Source: a virus. From it: 64,000 bases of DNA. The notes below the pieces were generated by a model, which did not search any database, had not been told where the DNA came from, and saw nothing but the letters and a program-made list of their open reading frames with translations. A program made the translations under genes and the position numbers. The stretch is from the IMG/VR virus record IMGVR_UViG_3300045412_000261, positions 78,582-142,581 of that record. One strand, 5' to 3'. Positions 58,217-64,000 of the stretch are shown in pieces (positions within the stretch are counted from its first letter, which is position 1; every line of letters starts with the position of its first letter).

Positions 58217-59209
58217 TTACTCACCGGTCTGTTCCATTATAATCCGGTGATCTGTATCGTCTATTGAATCATACCATTTTAAAAACCGTTTGATTCCTTC
58301 TTTGTATTCTACTTTAGGTTCGTAGCCAAGTCTTCTTAGAGGTGTTATGTCGGATGCGGTGAAGTAAACGTCTCCGTCTTGCATAGGTTGAAAATTCCGG
58401 CGGGCCTCCTTTCCAATCTCTTTCTCCAGAACATCAATAACATCTAAAATTTTAACACTCTCATTACTCCCTACATTATATAACATGTACTTAACATCTG
58501 TTTCATTTTTAATCACAATATTAATCCCATCAATAATATCATCAATGTAAGTAAATCCTCTATACATCTCTCCATTATTATAAATGTCAATAGGAATGTT
58601 ATTATGAATCCTATATGCAAATTTATACATCATCATATCAGGCCTACCCCATGGACCATACACTGTAAAGAATCTAAGACCTGTAGTACGCATGTTGAAC
58701 AAATGACTATATACATGTGCCGTCAATTCATTCATCTTCTTAGTTGCTGCATAAAATGATACCGGCACATCTGTTCTATCATCTGTACTAAATGCTATAT
58801 CCATGTTATTTCCCATTCCATATACACTTGAACTAGATGCATACACTAAATGATTTACTTCATATTTCTTACATGCTTCTATAATGTTCAAGAATCCCTG
58901 GACATTTGATCGGGCAAATAAATCCGGATTCTTGACGCTGGCTCTAACTCCGGCCTGGCCTGCTAAGTTCACTACTATATCAAACTTGTGCAGAGAGAAA
59001 ATAATTTCTACTTTCTTCTTATCTGCTATGTCCAAGTTATAATAGCTTATGTCTCTTAGCTCTGGGCGATTGAATCTCATAGAGTTTAATAACTGGGTAT
59101 CGCTACCATCAAAGAAGTCCACACCTATCACTTTGTGGCATTGGGTTAACATAGAATGCGCTATATGACTTCCAATGAATCCTGCGACACCCGTTATTAG
59201 TACTTTCAT
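58217..59209 (-). CDS. NAD-dependent nucleotide-sugar epimerase (UDP-glucuronate 4-epimerase-like)
   Basis: LITGVAGFIG, NLAGQAGVR, ASSSSVYG, YAATK, LRFFTVYGPWGRPDM. Confidence 0.9.
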   Translation of the reverse strand: MKVLITGVAGFIGSHIAHSMLTQCHKVIGVDFFDGSDTQLLNSMRFNRPELRDISYYNLDIADKKKVEIIFSLHKFDIVVNLAGQAGVRASVKNPDLFARSNVQGFLNIIEACKKYEVNHLVYASSSSVYGMGNNMDIAFSTDDRTDVPVSFYAATKKMNELTAHVYSHLFNMRTTGLRFFTVYGPWGRPDMMMYKFAYRIHNNIPIDIYNNGEMYRGFTYIDDIIDGINIVIKNETDVKYMLYNVGSNESVKILDVIDVLEKEIGKEARRNFQPMQDGDVYFTASDITPLRRLGYEPKVEYKEGIKRFLKWYDSIDDTDHRIIMEQTGE

Positions 59210-59219
59210 GCTACTGCTA

Positions 59220-59927
59220 CTATTGAACATTTGTGATAGAAAATTTAAAAAGTTTTTCCACCGCTTTCTTACTACCTGTATCTTGGGTCAAAGAACTTAC
59301 TATTTCCTTTTGCCAAACGCACTCAAAATCATTAGGTGCATTATATTCAGATACAAATACAATGTGTCCTTTACTTGCCATATCCCTGCACCATTGCCAA
59401 AAAACAACATGATTAAAGTCGTCTTTGTATTTTGTTGTTCCCTCGTATGGTGGGTCGCAATAAATCAAGCTGTTGTCAGGTATCTGTAAATCTAAATAGC
59501 TTTCGTTTACAAATTTTACACCTTGCAATAAAGGGCTTTGATTTATTGCGTTTTTGTAACTTTCATGTACATAATCACGTTTACCAAGTCCATCTCTACA
59601 CCATCCGCCAAGCCATTTACCGCTATAAGAAAAAGCAAAACCTGCATATCCTTTGTATTTATAATTATCGCTTTTTCTTAATTGCTTGTAATCTTCTTCA
59701 GTAAATTCTTTGTTGTTTTTTGGCAAATCTACAACACAATCTCTAATGGCAATTAAGGCATTAATCAAATAAGGGTTTATATCTGCACCTATTCTTTTGC
59801 CTTGTACCTTATCAATCATATTTGCTCCGCCAACAAAAGGTTCAACCCAAGTTCTTTGCCCTCGTTCTTTTAACATTATCGGTAGTATTTCTTTTGCTAT
59901 CCGATTTTTACTTCCCATATATTTCAT
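59220..59927 (-). CDS. DNA adenine methyltransferase (D12 class)
   Basis: YMGSK, EPFVGG, YCDPPY, VSEY. Confidence 0.85.
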   Translation of the reverse strand: MKYMGSKNRIAKEILPIMLKERGQRTWVEPFVGGANMIDKVQGKRIGADINPYLINALIAIRDCVVDLPKNNKEFTEEDYKQLRKSDNYKYKGYAGFAFSYSGKWLGGWCRDGLGKRDYVHESYKNAINQSPLLQGVKFVNESYLDLQIPDNSLIYCDPPYEGTTKYKDDFNHVVFWQWCRDMASKGHIVFVSEYNAPNDFECVWQKEIVSSLTQDTGSKKAVEKLFKFSITNVQ

Positions 59928-59964
59928 ACTCTAAAACTTTTTAATTTTTCTTTTCGTTTTCAAA

Positions 59965-60051
59965 TTAAAATCCTGCTAAATAAACCGCACCATCAAGTAA
60001 CACGGGTTTGGCAAAATTGCCGTTTTCGTTTTCAAATGAACTTTCTGTCAT
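59965..60051 (-). CDS. 28-aa mini-ORF starting inside attC-like element A
   Basis: MTESSFENENGNFAKPVLLDGAVYLAGF*; same frame across the arm as the ORFs in elements B, C and D. Confidence 0.3.
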   Translation of the reverse strand: MTESSFENENGNFAKPVLLDGAVYLAGF

Positions 60052-60120
60052 AATACCATCTTTTGTTTTTCAATTAAACTTTTCGTTTCGGCAACTTCGC
60101 CAAGCCTGAAAACGTTAGCG
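59995..60120 (+). repeat. attC-like element A (complete imperfect inverted repeat)
   Basis: TAAC-ACGGGTTTGGCAAAATTGCCG...CGGCAACTTCGCCAAGCCTG-AAAAC-GTTA. Confidence 0.7.
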
Positions 60121-60129
60121 GTAATGCCG

Positions 60130-60312
60130 TCAGAACTCTGACTTAAAATACCACCTTCCGCATTTATCACATTGTTTTTGTTCTTTACCTTGTTTATATT
60201 TTTTCTCTGCCCATTCGTGCCAAGCAACGTATCCAAGTTTTTTTGGTTTATGACGTTTACAAGGCATTGCCGATAACACGGGTTTGGCAAAATGGCTGTT
60301 GTAGTGCTTCAT
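60130..60312 (-). CDS. Small Cys/His zinc-ribbon-like protein (cassette gene)
   Basis: C..H.P...Y.AWHEWA......QKQC.KCG.W. Confidence 0.65.
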   Translation of the reverse strand: MKHYNSHFAKPVLSAMPCKRHKPKKLGYVAWHEWAEKKYKQGKEQKQCDKCGRWYFKSEF

Positions 60313-60439
60313 TTATTTTTTGTTTTTCCATTTTACTTTAGTTTAAAATGTGAGCGTTTGTGCATCTATTTATTATTCGTGGTAGGCTGAAAGGGATTGC
60401 ATCTTAACCCCTGCCTTCGTATAGCGTCAGCCGTTATCG
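60271..60439 (+). repeat. attC-like element B (chimeric arms)
   Basis: TTGCCGATAAC...GTTATCGGCAA ends; left arm identical to element C over 32 bp. Confidence 0.65.
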
Positions 60440-61123
60440 GCAAGCGTAAGACGACCACTGCACAGCCATAGCCTTTGCAATTCCATCAAACGTTTTGCTT
60501 CTTAACTTTGCTCTTTCTTCTTTTGGTAATTTCCAAGCATCGACATACCAAGTAGGCATACTTTTACCACTTGCAAACTTTGTTCTTTTTGGTGGATTAA
60601 CAATATTTGTCGGTTCTAATTTTGGTAATCCTTTAAGCCATAAGCAGGTTTTCTTTTCAAATGGATCGCCAAATTGGTATGGGTTAATTATTTGGTCCGG
60701 TTTTCTCCATTCGCTGCTCATTATGCCTACCGGGTTTTCAATAGCTATATAATCGCAATCAGCATCAGCAAACATTTTAAAGAATTTAATTGCAAACTCT
60801 CTGTCTTTATGCCTTTGTATTGCTTGTTCGCCATAGCGTTGAATATTAAACCATCTATTACCAGTTACAGTCAAGTATGTACAAGGAGGAAACGCAATTA
60901 TCATATCCCATTTTAGCTTTAATAATTCGGTTACATCGTGCTGTAAATGCCATTCAGGGTGTCCGCCACTTTCAGGTAGTAAATCACAACTAAATGCTTC
61001 GTGTCCTAATTTGCGTAATTCCTTTGTAACCGCTTGACTTTCCTCACAAGCAACAAGCACTCGGAGAACGTTAGCCGATAACACGGGTTTGGCAAAATGG
61101 CTGTTCAGTTCTTCTATTCTCAT
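60434..61123 (-). CDS. DNA cytosine methyltransferase-like protein (cassette gene)
   Basis: VLVACEES, IAFPPCT (PC motif), IENPV. Confidence 0.7.
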   Translation of the reverse strand: MRIEELNSHFAKPVLSANVLRVLVACEESQAVTKELRKLGHEAFSCDLLPESGGHPEWHLQHDVTELLKLKWDMIIAFPPCTYLTVTGNRWFNIQRYGEQAIQRHKDREFAIKFFKMFADADCDYIAIENPVGIMSSEWRKPDQIINPYQFGDPFEKKTCLWLKGLPKLEPTNIVNPPKRTKFASGKSMPTWYVDAWKLPKEERAKLRSKTFDGIAKAMAVQWSSYACR

Positions 61124-61188
61124 TCGTTCTTAGTTTTAAGATTAGTAATTCTATTACGGCACTGACGCAAATGTGCAAAACGTTAGCG
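61076..61188 (+). repeat. attC-like element C (chimeric arms)
   Basis: GCCGATAACACGGGTTTGGCAAAATGGCTG...CGGCACTGACGCAAATGTGCAAAAC-GTTAGCGGC. Confidence 0.65.
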
Positions 61189-61542
61189 GCTATTTCGAAC
61201 CGCCTCCAAAAGATACGCATCTAATAATTGACATAAAGAAGCGAAGGCGTTTCTATCCATCAATTCGGTAAGCGTGATACCTGTTGGTTCTAAGTACTCT
61301 TTTATCAAATCTACTTTTTGAGAAGCAACGGACGCTAACAATCGGTTAGTGTCATTGCCGTTTTCGTAGGTTGTTGAAGTTTTGTTTTCCATATAAAATT
61401 CATTTTCAAGCGATGGTTCATGTTCAATCGCTTCAATGATTTTTCTTTGGGTTAAATCTATTGAATAATCAAATAGTTCACCACCTACGCCAGATGACCT
61501 ATGTAAGCCATCGTTAAAGCCGTTTAATAAATTATTATCCAT
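61183..61542 (-). CDS. Hypothetical protein, possibly a fusion (internal start at 61392)
   Basis: Internal MENKTSTTYENGNDTNRLLASV crosses half-element D. Confidence 0.55.
   Translation of the reverse strand: MDNNLLNGFNDGLHRSSGVGGELFDYSIDLTQRKIIEAIEHEPSLENEFYMENKTSTTYENGNDTNRLLASVASQKVDLIKEYLEPTGITLTELMDRNAFASLCQLLDAYLLEAVRNSR
61333..61360 (+). repeat. attC-like half element D (left arm only)
   Basis: CGCTAAC-AATCGGTTAGTGTCATTGCCG-TTTTCGT; ends like arm A; no partner arm found. Confidence 0.5.
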
Positions 61543-61559
61543 TTTGTTAAATTATAAGT

Positions 61560-61820
61560 TTATTTTTCTTCATAACATAATAATGCTTCACAATCTCTTT
61601 CATCTAACCACTCTGCAATGTTTTGGCTTTCTTCCAATTTTTTTTGAACTTCAAAACTGACATCTTTTTTTGCCTGTTCAAGTTCATCAATTTGTTTTTG
61701 CAGTCGTTTATATTCTTGTTGTTTAGCTTTTATTTCAGCCCAGACAACCTTTTTTCTGATTATCTTATTTATTGTTTCGTTATCTATCATTTTTTTTAAA
61801 TTTTTCGCGGTGAACAACAA
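61560..61820 (-). CDS. Hypothetical coiled-coil protein
   Basis: 86 aa; true start may be the internal MIDNE. Confidence 0.55.
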   Translation of the reverse strand: MLFTAKNLKKMIDNETINKIIRKKVVWAEIKAKQQEYKRLQKQIDELEQAKKDVSFEVQKKLEESQNIAEWLDERDCEALLCYEEK

Positions 61821-62051
61821 TTACTCATCATTATCATCAATACAATCTAAATGAAATGATATAACATCTTCATCATCTTTTGTTAATTCATTCCTCTTAG
61901 CTCTACCCAGTAACTTTACTAACTCATGATAATCATTCAACATCAACTCCTCATCATCTTCATCTATATCAAATGAATATAACATACTCTCAGGATTGTA
62001 AGTCTCAATCCAAGATTCTAACTTACTTAACATTTCTTTATCTAACTGCAT
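61821..62051 (-). CDS. Small acidic early protein
   Basis: 76 aa behind its own promoter. Confidence 0.7.
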   Translation of the reverse strand: MQLDKEMLSKLESWIETYNPESMLYSFDIDEDDEELMLNDYHELVKLLGRAKRNELTKDDEDVISFHLDCIDDNDE

Positions 62052-62135
62052 GATTTAAAATTTAAAGTGATGATTAATATGATACAAATATAGGGAGAAT
62101 AATTGAGAAATCCAAATCCTCCCATGTTAAAATTT
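62052..62135 (-). promoter_or_regulatory. Early promoter/UTR module
   Basis: TTAACAT...TTTG-N20-TATATTTG...CACTTTAAATTTT..ATG. Confidence 0.8.
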
Positions 62136-62137
62136 TA

Positions 62138-62338
62138 TTAATTACAGTAAACATTTGTATTCCTTCTAACTTCCTTACTAATCTTATATGTACCGAAGTA
62201 GTATAATTTAGCCTTAGAAAGTAATCTTATTGCAGCCTTCTTATTGTATGCAGTTACACAAGCATGACCCGAATAAAATCCATTAGAATCAATCCTTTTG
62301 CCATTTAATATAGCTATCCATTCTTTTTCTTTTTTCAT
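62138..62338 (-). CDS. Small basic early protein
   Basis: 66 aa ORF. Confidence 0.55.
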   Translation of the reverse strand: MKKEKEWIAILNGKRIDSNGFYSGHACVTAYNKKAAIRLLSKAKLYYFGTYKISKEVRRNTNVYCN

Positions 62339-62343
62339 TTCTA

Positions 62344-62640
62344 TTATTTTGAAAAGTGATTTAAGAAACTAATGAAAACATAATCATATAACATTTCATC
62401 ATGTCCTTCTAAGATGTCGGTAGAAACATTCTCTACTATCTTACATGTCAATGAATCTAAGCTTTCCATGATTGACTCAAATGAACCCATCATGTGAGTG
62501 TATTCTAAAATGTCTTTAGCTTTCTTTGTTCCATACCTTTCTGATTTTTCATCATCATCATCATTAAGAATTTTATTACAGATGTTTGACACATGATAGG
62601 AAACAATCTTGAATAAATAAGAACTTCTGTCAACGTTCAT
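62344..62640 (-). CDS. Early hypothetical protein
   Basis: Start moved to ATG 62640, downstream of promoter. Confidence 0.65.
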   Translation of the reverse strand: MNVDRSSYLFKIVSYHVSNICNKILNDDDDEKSERYGTKKAKDILEYTHMMGSFESIMESLDSLTCKIVENVSTDILEGHDEMLYDYVFISFLNHFSK

Positions 62641-62725
62641 TTTTGTAGTTTTAAAGTGGTGAATAATATGATACAAATATAGGGGGGATAAACAAGAAAT
62701 CCAAGTCCCCCCTATGTTAAACTTT
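62641..62725 (-). promoter_or_regulatory. Early promoter/UTR module with 10-bp inverted repeat
   Basis: TTG-N20-TATATTTG; ATAGGGGGGA/TCCCCCCTAT. Confidence 0.8.
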
Positions 62726-62727
62726 TC

Positions 62728-63297
62728 TTAATTTTCCGCGGGGCTCTTCTCACGATATATTGAAATCAAAGTCTCCATATCATCATCACTAACATATGAA
62801 TACTCCCTTCTTATTTGTTCTTCACTATCAATCCAATCATTCTCAACATTCATACGAAAATCATAGTAGAAACTATCAAGATCTTCAACATACTGATATT
62901 CCATATAAGACATCTCTTTCTCATCTATCCTGTATCCTTTTTCATCAATATCTACAAATCCTCCAAAATCATTACCTGATTCAGCGTAAGTAATCCTTGC
63001 ACCTATTCCGTACTTCTTACATACCTTCTCTACAAACCCTATACAAGGACTCCAAGCCGTTTCACAATTAAAATAGTCATTGGTAGATATCGAGCATCTA
63101 ATATCTTCATCCATCTCTACACCCCATTTAGTCCCAAACTCTTTTACCCAATCGTTACAATCCCATTCTCCCTTGTAATCAGTCAATGCAGTAAATATAC
63201 ATTGCCCATTCTCAATACTTTCAACATCTTTTCTAAATGATTTCATAGCTTTCTCGCTACCATCAAACTCAATACAATTTGAACACCAATTTGGCAT
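62728..63297 (-). CDS. YubB/DUF1281 ferredoxin-like domain protein
   Basis: MPNWCSN, GTKW, TAWSP, Y.E.G.DF.G motifs. Confidence 0.75.
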   Translation of the reverse strand: MPNWCSNCIEFDGSEKAMKSFRKDVESIENGQCIFTALTDYKGEWDCNDWVKEFGTKWGVEMDEDIRCSISTNDYFNCETAWSPCIGFVEKVCKKYGIGARITYAESGNDFGGFVDIDEKGYRIDEKEMSYMEYQYVEDLDSFYYDFRMNVENDWIDSEEQIRREYSYVSDDDMETLISIYREKSPAEN

Positions 63298-63390
63298 GAT
63301 TCTAAAAATTTAAAGTGGTTAATAATATGATGCAAAATTAATAACATTCTATCTAATATCCAAATAATAAAATGTTAAAGTAATGTTAAA
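63298..63390 (-). promoter_or_regulatory. Early promoter/UTR module
   Basis: TTTG-N20-TAATTTTG, upstream TTAACAT repeats. Confidence 0.75.
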
Positions 63391-63784: not shown

Positions 63785-63955
63785 TTAGTTATCGTTAACG
63801 TTTTCCTTGTAGAAAATAGCTGCATTAATTATAGACCTAATGAGTTCTTCTTCGGTAAGGTAGACAAGTTCTGATGAATCAAATTCGTCTGAAAGTAATA
63901 ACTCTAAAGCATCTACTAAATCTCTTCTTGAAATTTGCTTCAATTCTACTAACAT
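63785..63955 (-). CDS. Small acidic early protein
   Basis: Start moved to ATG 63955, downstream of promoter. Confidence 0.6.
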   Translation of the reverse strand: MLVELKQISRRDLVDALELLLSDEFDSSELVYLTEEELIRSIINAAIFYKENVNDN

Positions 63956-64000
63956 TTTTTTAATTTTTAAGTGGTCAATAATATGTTGCAAAGATAAGGG
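63956..64000 (-). promoter_or_regulatory. Early promoter/UTR module (truncated by window end)
   Basis: TATCTTTG...ATATTATTGACCACTTAAAA. Confidence 0.7.

Follow-up and report, generated by a model that had tools for sequence, protein, structure and literature searches.

Integrons are regarded as mainly proteobacterial, and their integrases are thought to need an extra domain to recombine folded single-stranded sites. In sedentary chromosomal integrons the attC sites are uniform and about 120 nt long, as in the Vibrio repeats, and for attC sites it is established that strand choice operates through wobble or mismatch positions in the folded DNA. A second precedent for hairpin modules between genes is provided by the promoter stem-loops of T4-type phages, mobile regulatory cassettes thought to spread by homologous or microhomology recombination. 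The closest described arrays are the CALINs reported in virulent phages by Qi et al. 2023 (PMC9892861), including that of Polaribacter phage P12002L, which has a marine flavobacterium as host; in the sections of that paper used here, one P12002L site recombined with attI1 under IntI1, attC2 being the only one of the two sites to do so, and the sites are treated as ordinary attC sites. Those sections contain no description of the hairpin family, in-loop start codon, extended cassette ends or Xer-like recombinase presented below. In the literature searched, neither this family nor its recombinase as a cassette system was described; only Qi et al. 2023 touches on it, and only fragments of this system are in print.

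The window examined here is a 64,000-nt stretch of a lake-water phage genome, contained in a 142.6-kb record that is about 82% complete. Window positions 59213-61401 probably constitute a fragment of a cassette array, part of an integron-like system through which Bacteroidota and their phages capture genes. Four single-gene units are present, two of them DNA methyltransferases, with hairpin elements A to D between them and an epimerase gene adjoining the 3′ end of the array (Table 1). The earlier note's strand reading had to be reversed, as genes and elements all lie on the minus strand. The separating element is a ~130-nt hairpin running from TAAC to GTTA, of which one copy is intact (A), two are half-decayed (B, C) and one is truncated (D).

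Table 1. Features of the cassette array and its upstream border, in window coordinates.
Feature	Position	Strand	Content or evidence
Cassette 4, 3′-truncated	59213..59994	-	Leader and D12-class Dam DNA methyltransferase gene, 59220-59927, 235 aa
Element A, sole intact hairpin site	59987..60128	-	Covariance model, 123.8 bits, E 2.5e-31, full length
Cassette 3 cargo, 60-aa ORF with CxxC pair	60130..60312	-	ORF list
Element B	60263..60447	-	Covariance model, 31.9 bits, many non-pairing positions
Cassette 2 cargo, 229-aa DNA methyltransferase	60434..61123	-	phrog_757, 2.4e-69
Element C	61068..61196	-	Covariance model, 53.1 bits, 5′-arm positions marked as non-pairs
Cassette 1 cargo, 69-aa ORF	61183..61392	-	ORF list; starts in loop of remnant D
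Remnant D	61328..61401	-	nhmmer, profile positions 69-142 (3′ half only), E 0.0018
Intervening stretch	61402..61788	-	Between remnant D and resumed synteny (about 61783-61788)

Both methyltransferase units recur as cassettes elsewhere. The Dam gene (Pfam PF02086, E 1.7e-16; phrog_56 DNA methyltransferase, 9.1e-46) belongs to a unit without its own terminal repeat or TAAC, which is 90.7% identical in nucleotides, over window 60021 to 59212, to a complete cassette at locus L011; the L011 copy continues for 20 nt more and reaches its own end-repeat and TAAC. The 229-aa methyltransferase, for which no Pfam family was found, shares 93-96% amino acid identity over its full length with cassette ORFs of five loci (L048, L071, L012, L172, L051). 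Its unit has ~92% nucleotide identity in five other full loci, the similarity running from window 61155 to 60432/60433 and ending exactly at the TAAC of element B. The two small ORFs are less widely represented: the 60-aa ORF matched no Pfam or PHROG family and has one weak relative (in L192, 39% amino acid identity), and the 69-aa ORF, which is the in-frame C-terminal part of a 119-aa ORF (61183-61542), has weak relatives in L352 and L138. As read from the sequence, the 69-aa ORF starts at an internal Met followed by a typical in-loop leader. In the same way, element C holds, in its loop and 3′ arm, the start codon and first ~14 codons of the 229-aa methyltransferase, and the first ~14 codons of the 60-aa ORF sit within element B.

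The elements are demonstrably related, as the earlier note had claimed from their common sequence. A 19-mer occurs once each in A, B and C (59999, 60275 and 61080) where 0.02 copies are expected, reached three copies in 0 of 100 shuffles, and has no further copy in the 142.6-kb record. B and C have 32 identical nucleotides in common, a stretch that falls inside ORF 5′ ends and that A matches at 81%, and A and D share an exact 14-nt repeat (60016-60029 and 61354-61367). The covariance-model scan proposed by the note, run with a model built from 80 family members, recovered three full-length matches, which lie within 1.4 kb together with the half site detected by nhmmer (Table 1). The note had called A, B and C complete and D a half-element; of the three, B and C lack a pairing 5′ arm. 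Element B (sense-strand TAAC at 60433-60436, GTTA at 60271-60274) has an intact 3′ arm and GTTA but a degenerate 5′ arm; element C (TAAC at 61182-61185, GTTA at 61076-61079) likewise keeps its 3′ arm, while its 5′ arm has degenerated or been replaced, likeness to canonical copies beginning only at 61155, past that arm. Remnant D retains the loop, a diverged 3′ arm and GTTA at 61336-61339, and because its 5′ half is missing it marks a truncated upstream border of the array. The ability to fold is therefore kept in one of three full sites, element A, whose TAAC...GTTA core spans 59995-60117 and whose match to the model has one non-standard pair marked in the stem; by reading of the sequence, a 28-aa mini-ORF (59965-60051) begins at an ATG in its loop. 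When element A was folded as single-stranded DNA, the long stem was used in the predicted fold of both strands, but the energy was no better than that of shuffles (z -0.15 sense, +0.05 antisense); folding energies do not single this element out, and we do not use them as evidence.

Structural evidence comes instead from the family as a whole. The 3′-arm motif was found in at least 128 stretches from viruses and at least 120 from bacterial genomes, with up to eight co-oriented elements per 5-kb locus, and homologues of the elements border unrelated genes at hundreds of loci, which is what the scan for homologues suggested by the earlier note was meant to look for. Pairing across 80 representatives amounts to 91.7% for the 20-bp stem, where 13 of 20 pairs have changed on both sides, and to 97.5% for TAAC/GTTA. 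None of five structure measures was reached by any of 500 shuffles, and controls in which the alignment was slid gave 35-46% paired cells versus 79.5% for the true alignment; the 20-bp stem is thus backed by compensatory changes. Two G-U pairs on the gene-sense strand are kept in 79 and 80 of the 80 sequences. The stem of the family has one conserved C.A mismatch, two conserved G.U/G.T positions, and a spacer of ~5 nt on one side versus 1 nt on the other, and no bulged bases of the type described for attC were seen in it; classical attC sites, in the folded bottom strand, have extrahelical bases and an unpaired central spacer that is roughly symmetric. A conserved N-terminal peptide was considered as the source of this conservation and rejected: Flavobacterium phage mumin6-1 reads this DNA in a different frame, and the family as a whole uses all three frames (71, 53 and 12 in-hairpin ORFs). 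Conservation of the hairpin is at the nucleotide level.

The ends of the gene units provide a second line of comparison. The earlier note had reported that the two ends of each gene segment are complementary at 13/15, 13/15 and about 11/15 positions, and re-measurement returned the same values: 10 of 12 nt beyond GTT/AAC, or 13/15, for the 60-aa unit; 87% of 15 nt, again 13/15, for arms 60433-60447 and 61068-61082; and about 11/15, by reading the sequence, for remnant D against 61182. We extended the comparison to 152 non-redundant cassettes, each bounded by two adjacent elements, using the full iterated profile, as short-profile nhmmer was less sensitive for cassette ends. A cassette's own ends (the 12 nt after GTT against the 12 nt before the next AAC) matched at a mean of 8.6 of 12 positions, with at least 9 of 12 in 97 cassettes and fewer than 9 in 55. 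The two flanks of a single element averaged 4.77, only 5 of 325 reaching 9, versus 4.76 for random pairs. Pairing of the ends falls off sharply past position 12, and the end repeat has a further conserved G.T at position 8. Within one isolate genome, own ends reached at least 9 in 16 of 21 cassettes, with same-element flanks averaging 4.42. Own ends that pair, together with element flanks at chance level, follow by analogy the logic of integron attC sites. The attC-type reading of the array in the earlier note, drawn from its AAC/GTT cores, imperfect hairpin and complementary ends, gained support from both the 80-sequence stem and the 152-cassette tests.

Where units break and rejoin was resolved by comparing elements with shared neighbors. 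In 248 pairs that share the downstream but not the upstream gene, mismatch across the hairpin is 0.04-0.29, reaching about 0.5 solely across the 9 nt that precede TAAC; 42 pairs in which the upstream gene is shared and the downstream gene is not show the reverse pattern. The exchange point therefore lies at or next to the TAAC end on the gene-sense strand, and each hairpin moves together with its downstream gene. A point against this scheme is that the spacer separating TAAC from the 5′ arm shows linkage to neither of the adjacent genes. Units had been drawn in the earlier note between elements; exchange at the AAC/GTT triplet survives from that scheme, but the hairpin belongs to the downstream gene and the break to the AAC end of the gene-sense strand. 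Comparison of an oligonucleotide given by Qi et al. 2023 with locus L253 equates the G|TT end of the Polaribacter-phage site that recombined under IntI1 with the gene-sense TAAC end.

These results bear on three other explanations. The one that survives best, although unlikely, is that the elements are portable regulatory or translation-start hairpins that shuffle genes by ordinary homologous recombination without a dedicated recombinase, as proposed for T4-type stem-loops. The family resembles those stem-loops in being a conserved intergenic hairpin module that carries expression signals and sits among small accessory genes, in the variable parts of lytic phage genomes: its loop provides the start codon and A-rich leader of the downstream gene, and its core contains 19-32 identical nucleotides, enough for homology. 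About one in ten elements has mismatched distal arms, which points to some exchange within the loop, probably by homologous recombination; some elements combine arms of different subtypes, again suggesting crossovers there, and the present array reached its phage without using its sites. Yet homologous exchange predicts junctions anywhere in the core, whereas the whole core travels with the gene downstream of it and breaks are located at TAAC. Such exchange leaves unexplained the 12-nt complementary ends that differ between units and the constant placement and orientation of arrays next to a single recombinase family. Furthermore, array genes in Bacteroidota chromosomes are antisense to the elements, so that the hairpin gives no start codon there. 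A localized junction, cassette-specific inverted ends and an array-associated recombinase family thus set these elements apart from T4-type modules, which would be expected to exchange by homology at any point of the module and to lack terminal repeats specific to each cassette.

Less probable still is a role in mRNA, in which the hairpin would act in translation control, processing or stability, the matched ends would form an RNA panhandle, and modularity would be a by-product. The conserved G-U pairs and the G.T of the end repeat do fit a fold on the strand that phages transcribe, but strand choice in folded DNA sites would lead one to expect conserved wobbles and mismatches just as much. 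Bacteroidota ORFs lie on the opposite strand and would yield transcripts with C-A mismatches, yet they belong to the same family and obey the same end rule. No Rfam family matched over 59000-62000 at E up to 1, and an RNA role leaves the association with a recombinase unexplained. Finally, MITE-like miniature inverted-repeat transposons, or sequences targeted by one, that a transposase had placed between genes would account for terminal inverted repeats (TAAC...GTTA plus arms) and for 75-150-nt elements in many copies per genome, but are very improbable given that element flanks match at chance with no target-site duplication, elements are strictly co-oriented in arrays, the recurring unit is hairpin plus gene rather than hairpin alone, and no association with a transposase was seen in a search that was not systematic.

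The earlier note saw no integrase in the window, and none is present in the rest of the record either: PF00589 gave 0 matches in the 142.6 kb, and tblastn with the array-linked recombinase described here gave a best E of 2.2. The note's suggestion of a recombinase acting in trans gained a candidate family, but one that is not IntI. Arrays of Bacteroidota chromosomes and of other phages, including one in a Flavobacterium genome, adjoin an Xer-like tyrosine recombinase without the IntI insertion. On TIGR02249, whose cut-off is 265 bits, this protein scores 203.6 in two stretches that leave out the insertion, and a search of 5 element-bearing Bacteroidota genomes for IntI-like integrases put 0 of them above the integron-integrase cut-off. 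In the best 80 bacterial loci encoding relatives of the recombinase, 35 of 35 element matches lie downstream of, and antisense to, its gene; in 80 viral loci, all 147 element matches lie on the strand of the recombinase and 144 of them upstream of its gene. No element was found in 56 of the 80 bacterial and 28 of the 80 viral loci, and many of the bacterial loci break off shortly past the gene. Relative to the elements, the recombinase thus sits at the 3′ end of the array, absent in the window and present elsewhere on the expected side; the link between the two is one of adjacency alone.

Compared point by point, the system shares much with classical integrons: single-gene units in co-oriented arrays, AAC/GTT triplets bounding an imperfect hairpin of ~120-130 nt, cassette ends that pair with each other rather than with the neighboring site, exchange at one AAC/GTT triplet, a tyrosine recombinase at one array end and, in Bacteroidota chromosomes, an ORF that precedes its site. 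It differs in its recombinase, which lacks the IntI insertion, falls below the integron-integrase cut-off and is encoded co-oriented with the cargo; in an R-box-like stem of 15 bp, not 7; in an asymmetric spacer (about 5 nt versus 1 nt); and in having conserved mismatches and wobbles instead of the extrahelical bases described for attC. Phage ORFs also run the opposite way and begin inside the hairpin loop, so that each cassette brings its own translation start. A classical integron is not what was found: no intI with the IntI-specific extra domain lies beside the array. The definition of a CALIN, a group of two or more attC-type sites spanning a few kb with no integrase nearby, applies only if these sites count as attC-type. 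The P12002L-type CALINs, as described in the sections of PMC9892861 used here, are likewise phage arrays without an integrase that carry DNA methyltransferase cargo, and the P12002L Dam gene is 76% identical in nucleotides to that of the window. The P12002L sites, however, form a different and shorter sequence family; membership of its hairpins in the present family was rejected, as the arm motifs had no match in an 8.6-kb region with up to 3 and 4 mismatches.

We propose a mechanism that would accommodate these observations. On the gene-sense strand, a unit begins with the C of (TAA)C, a ~5-nt spacer and the 20-nt 5′ arm, followed by an A-rich loop of ~65 nt carrying the gene's ATG and first codons, the 20-nt 3′ arm, GTTA and 12 cassette-specific nucleotides; next comes the ORF, and the unit closes with a 12-nt complement of those nucleotides and TAA. 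On excision as a circle, the two 12-nt ends would come to flank the hairpin and lengthen its stem into an R-box-like helix of ~15 bp. A circle that brings its own ends round its own hairpin would explain why the ends of a unit pair with each other. Exchange would be catalyzed in trans on folded single-stranded DNA by the Xer-like tyrosine recombinase whose family is found beside arrays and is absent here, the gene-sense strand presumably being the one that recombines. The methyltransferase cargo may serve to shield phage DNA from host restriction.

Synteny with related phages resumes at 59213 on the downstream side of the array, and on the other side alignments to two relatives stop at window 61788 (L427) and 61783 (L428). 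The intervening stretch contains the N-terminal part of the 119-aa ORF and an 86-aa ORF (61560-61820), and related phages have other small ORFs in this slot. Both array borders fall away from recombination sites and cut inside cassettes, and six related phage contigs contain no element at all; the array was therefore probably acquired as a block, most likely by illegitimate recombination. The earlier note had the phage carrying or harvesting a cassette system; with both borders outside the recombination sites, this copy looks like one taken up whole and gives no indication of actively harvesting cassettes. As only element A still folds, the array has probably lost full mobility. All or part of the stretch is present, always as assembled contigs, in 24 lake or freshwater sequencing runs. 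Contigs from four lake-water metagenome runs, checked for the excision joints that the note had asked after, contained no such joints, insertions or deletions, a result uninformative on activity because contigs are blind to rare excision products. Contig starts and stops at the 32-nt repeats are expected for short-word assembly, and two loose contig ends in one run (59253 and 61683; X13) may derive from a relative with other DNA in the slot.

Taken together, we lean towards a second, previously undescribed kind of integron in Bacteroidota and their phages, with a compact Xer-like recombinase lacking the IntI insertion, ~130-nt sites, cassette-specific R boxes of 15 bp, and phage cassettes that are self-starting through a start codon supplied by the loop. 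Its cassette pool would be common to both sides of the arms race, phages carrying mainly anti-restriction DNA methyltransferases and hosts other accessory genes. The window is one partly decayed example of this system, and also shows such arrays moving between phages as blocks with their own sites unused. A structured-site cassette system run without the extra integrase domain would test which protein features the chemistry needs, and would explain the ready swapping of anti-restriction methyltransferases among lytic phages of a major aquatic phylum. The hairpin model itself provides a sequence handle for mobile accessory genes in Bacteroidota genomes and viromes.

The attC-type array proposed in the earlier note from sequence alone was confirmed on wider comparison: this region of the window is a fragment of an integron-like cassette array with four units, each a hairpin element plus its downstream gene. 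Two units carry DNA methyltransferases, and the fragment lacks a recombinase. The repeats reported there are also real, with a 19-mer present three times (0.02 copies expected) and 32 nt identical between two of the copies; the 142.6-kb virus record holds no further occurrence of the 19-mer. The repeat stretch falls within the 5′ ends of ORFs on the minus strand, which carries all genes within 58217-62051. The 119-aa ORF is a fusion: its last 69 residues form a typical cassette ORF whose first residue is an internal Met encoded in the remnant-D loop, and the 50 residues ahead of them stem from unrelated DNA upstream that is in frame by chance.

Features of the array region (window coordinates; order, order of transcription)
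Feature	Coordinates	Strand	Order	Match
NAD-dependent epimerase	58217-59230	minus	fifth
235-aa D12-class Dam methyltransferase	59220-59927	minus	fourth	PHROGs phrog_56 (DNA methyltransferase), 9.1e-46
Element A	59987-60128
60-aa ORF	60130-60312	minus	third
Element B	60263-60447
229-aa protein, DNA methyltransferase	60434-61123	minus	second	PHROGs phrog_757, 2.4e-69
Element C	61068-61196
119-aa ORF	61183-61542	minus	first
Half-element D (remnant)	61328-61401
Second repeat, copy 1	62049-62142
Second repeat, copy 2	62636-62685
Second repeat, copy 3	63294-63336
Second repeat, copy 4	63953-64000

In Flavobacterium phage mumin6-1 the 19-mer also opens a methyltransferase gene, read there in a different frame; across the family, ORFs beginning within the element use every one of the three frames for the motif (71, 53 and 12). 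This rules out a conserved peptide: the conservation resides in the DNA. Among contigs, a degenerate form of the motif matched at least 128 viral and at least 120 bacterial-genome stretches. Bacterial matches with full context are Bacteroidota, and those in other phyla are mostly variant spellings without context, in the number that chance predicts for the size of the collection. On the gene-sense strand, the stop codon of the previous gene and about 12 variable nt lead into the canonical element. This opens with TAAC and a ~5-nt spacer; its 5′ and 3′ arms, each of 20 nt and the 3′ arm being the window repeat, enclose an A-rich loop of ~65 nt, and a single nucleotide separates the 3′ arm from the closing GTTA. 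Another 12 variable nt and the gene body come next. The ATG of that gene and its first nine or so codons usually lie within the loop; shorter classes, whose cores measure 75-90 nt, lack the ATG. Covariation backs the stem: across 80 representatives of 142 distinct cores (near-duplicates removed), it was 91.7% paired, with both sides changing in 13 of 20 pairs, a C.A mismatch kept in 78/80 sequences, two G.U pairs in 79/80 and 80/80, and TAAC/GTTA paired in 97.5% of cells. None of 500 shuffles reached these values, slid controls were 35-46% paired, and no Rfam family matched the element.

An iterated nhmmer profile recovered 415 elements in the fetched loci, 354 of them with AAC and GTT both at the aligned places. 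With the remainder set aside and duplicates collapsed, 152 non-redundant segments between adjacent elements were left. In these, the 12 nt following GTT were the reverse complement of the 12 nt ahead of the next AAC at a mean of 8.6/12 positions, and at 9/12 or more in 97 of the 152, against 4.77 for the flanks of a single element (9 or more in 5/325) and 4.76 for random pairs. Pairing spans positions 1-12 and drops to background from position 13; position 8 is Watson-Crick in only 3%, with G opposite T on the sense strand in the cases read. Long segments are over-represented among the 55 cassettes matching at fewer than 9/12, and may conceal undetected elements. Within the window, the ends of the 60-aa unit match at 10/12 and the flanks of element A at 2/11 (the latter counted by eye). 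Ends that pair within a unit and differ between units are the signature of integron cassettes; in integrons, the halves of one folded site come to lie at opposite ends of the inserted cassette.

The exchange point was localised by comparing 344 element instances from different loci with 80-nt flanks. In 248 pairs sharing the downstream gene and not the upstream one, mismatch stayed at 0.04-0.29 through the hairpin back to the 5′ arm and rose to that of unrelated sequence (about 0.5) only within the 9 nt ahead of TAAC; 42 pairs sharing only the upstream gene showed the opposite pattern. TAACG is invariant, and the ~6-nt spacer behind it follows neither neighbouring gene. On the gene-sense strand, these alignments place the junction at TAAC or immediately behind it, so that the moving unit comprises hairpin, GTTA, gene and end-repeat. 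The classical integron layout of G|TT, cassette and site is this layout seen from the opposite strand, except that the ORF is inverted. The gene-sense strand, with G.T wobbles and no A.C mismatches, would then be the counterpart of the integron bottom strand.

By sequence comparison, the window cassettes have the same boundaries as those of the family. Five full and two partial loci on other contigs carry the 229-aa methyltransferase unit at about 92% nt identity (93-96% aa); the similarity begins at 61155, directly behind the lost 5′ arm of C, and ends at the TAAC of B (60432/60433). The Dam unit shares 90.7% nt identity with a copy on another contig (L011) that extends 20 nt further, as far as an end-repeat and TAAC of its own; in the window the unit breaks off at 59212, where phage backbone follows. 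The window sites themselves comprise one intact, two decayed and one cut off. Against a covariance model built from the 80-sequence alignment, A scored 123.8 bits, C 53.1 and B 31.9; the 5′ arms of B and C no longer pair, and D matches only the 3′ half of the sequence profile (E 0.0018). On either strand, the single-stranded fold predicted for A contains the long stem; shuffled sequences match it in energy (z -0.15 and +0.05), and energy was therefore not counted as evidence.

Among 247 elements in viral loci (first scan), an in-hairpin ORF reads through GTT in 136 and not in 111. A Pfam scan of 78 distinct ORFs, each complete and at least 60 aa long, identified N6_N4_Mtase in 18, a C5 methylase domain in 10, D12 in 1 and Mom in 1; five carried DUF4326, DUF551, YopX, HTH_39 or a class I tRNA-synthetase domain, and 43 had no family. 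An unusual companion to the methyltransferases is a 442-aa in-hairpin phage cassette ORF (L081, 1216-2544) with class I tRNA-synthetase domains (PF09334, 3.9e-42). The bacterial arrays examined carry other cargo, including SUKH/SMI1, DUF6882, CpXC, lipocalin-like and thioesterase proteins.

The lack of an integrase in the window, as the earlier note had it, extends to the whole virus record (estimated about 82% complete), in which we found no tyrosine recombinase; tblastn with the array-linked recombinase of a Flavobacterium isolate returned nothing from this genome (best E 2.2). That isolate has 36 model matches. Its arrays take up one 20.9-kb contig entirely and portions of four more (L262-L266); several of these contigs start or stop within arrays, so that the lengths seen are minima. 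Its ORFs are antisense to the elements, the classical order of ORF then site, and its ends match at 9/12 or more in 16/21 cassettes (same-element mean 4.42). About 800 nt separate the end of one array from a 353-aa tyrosine recombinase (PF00589 plus a SAM_4 domain), which scored 203.6 bits, in two stretches, against the integron-integrase model TIGR02249 (cut-off 265) and 219 against the Xer/integron-integrase model (cut-off 220). In five other element-bearing genomes, no integron-integrase match reaches the cut-off, and the best ones leave out model positions ~181-237, which make up the IntI-specific insertion; in the part of Smyshlyaev et al. 2021 available (PMC8138268), this insertion is described as not fully conserved within the integron-like subgroup. 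The system works like an integron, but on the integrase it does not qualify as one: the record contains no IntI, and the linked recombinase falls below the cut-off.

Relatives of this recombinase were confirmed in genome contigs (590) and viral contigs (233). Elements occur in 24 of the best 80 bacterial loci, with 35/35 matches downstream of the recombinase gene on the opposite strand and none in the 8 kb upstream, and in 52 of the best 80 viral loci, with 147/147 matches on the recombinase's strand and 144 upstream of the gene. In element-sense orientation, the recombinase therefore lies at the same array end in both, co-oriented with the cargo. The bacterial share is probably an underestimate, because many contigs (L267-L346) end 0.1-2 kb downstream of the recombinase gene, as repeat arrays would cause in short-read assemblies. 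This linkage, an association and no proof of catalysis, suggests that the recombinase would be the enzyme acting on the arrays.

The consulted part of Qi et al. 2023 (PMC9892861) reports attC clusters without integrase in virulent phages, including Polaribacter phage P12002L with methyltransferase cassettes, and IntI1-dependent recombination of P12002L_attC2 with attI1, with G|TT junctions sequenced, and none for P12002L_attC1. The Dam gene is 76% identical in nucleotides between the window and P12002L. By our reading, the hairpins in the fetched P12002L region belong to a different, shorter family that keeps the TAAC...GTTA layout and whose matched ends are longer still; neither arm motif of the window family matched there. 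These ~65-nt hairpins precede Dam and Mom-like genes (L253, 2950-5100), tying the same Dam cargo to two site families, and the Dam unit has matched ends of about 26 nt. The published attC2 oligo is, by eye, the reverse complement of one such hairpin region, so that its G|TT end corresponds to the gene-sense TAAC. In the portions available, a review lists Bacteroidota among phyla having integrons (PMC8618304) and a preprint implies that they were earlier found without them (10.1101/2024.07.02.601686). Our literature search found no description of the hairpin family, the in-loop start codon or the recombinase as a cassette system.

Twenty-four lake or freshwater sequencing runs contain the array stretch, in whole or in part, all as assembled contigs. 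Those of four runs break at the 32-nt repeats, as expected from short-word assembly, and contain no excision joints; such contigs bear neither for nor against excision, and any present-day activity in the window phage is something we infer.

Six viral contigs share the neighbouring epimerase (80-85% aa identity) with synteny on both sides, and have other small ORFs between the flanks and no hairpin elements at E up to 0.1. They also contain many matches, at 80-96% identity, to a second repeat of ~45-90 nt, unrelated to the hairpin repeat. In the window this second repeat precedes several small minus-strand ORFs that begin alike (MxHIIHHxK...); in this phage group it may serve as a recurrent promoter or leader module. 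In three of the relatives (L428 2593-3312, L429 2303-2998, L430 2591-3286), a methyltransferase of phrog_757 type lies elsewhere in the genome, 53-56% identical in aa to that of the window, and no hairpin element was detected close to it. Synteny is lost at window 59213 and, for the two closest relatives, at about 61783-61788. Neither border is a recombination site: one lies 20 nt short of TAAC, and the first recognisable feature at the other is half-element D. Missing from relatives and bordered off its sites, the array was gained by this lineage in a variable slot, and most likely came in as one block from another array by illegitimate recombination.
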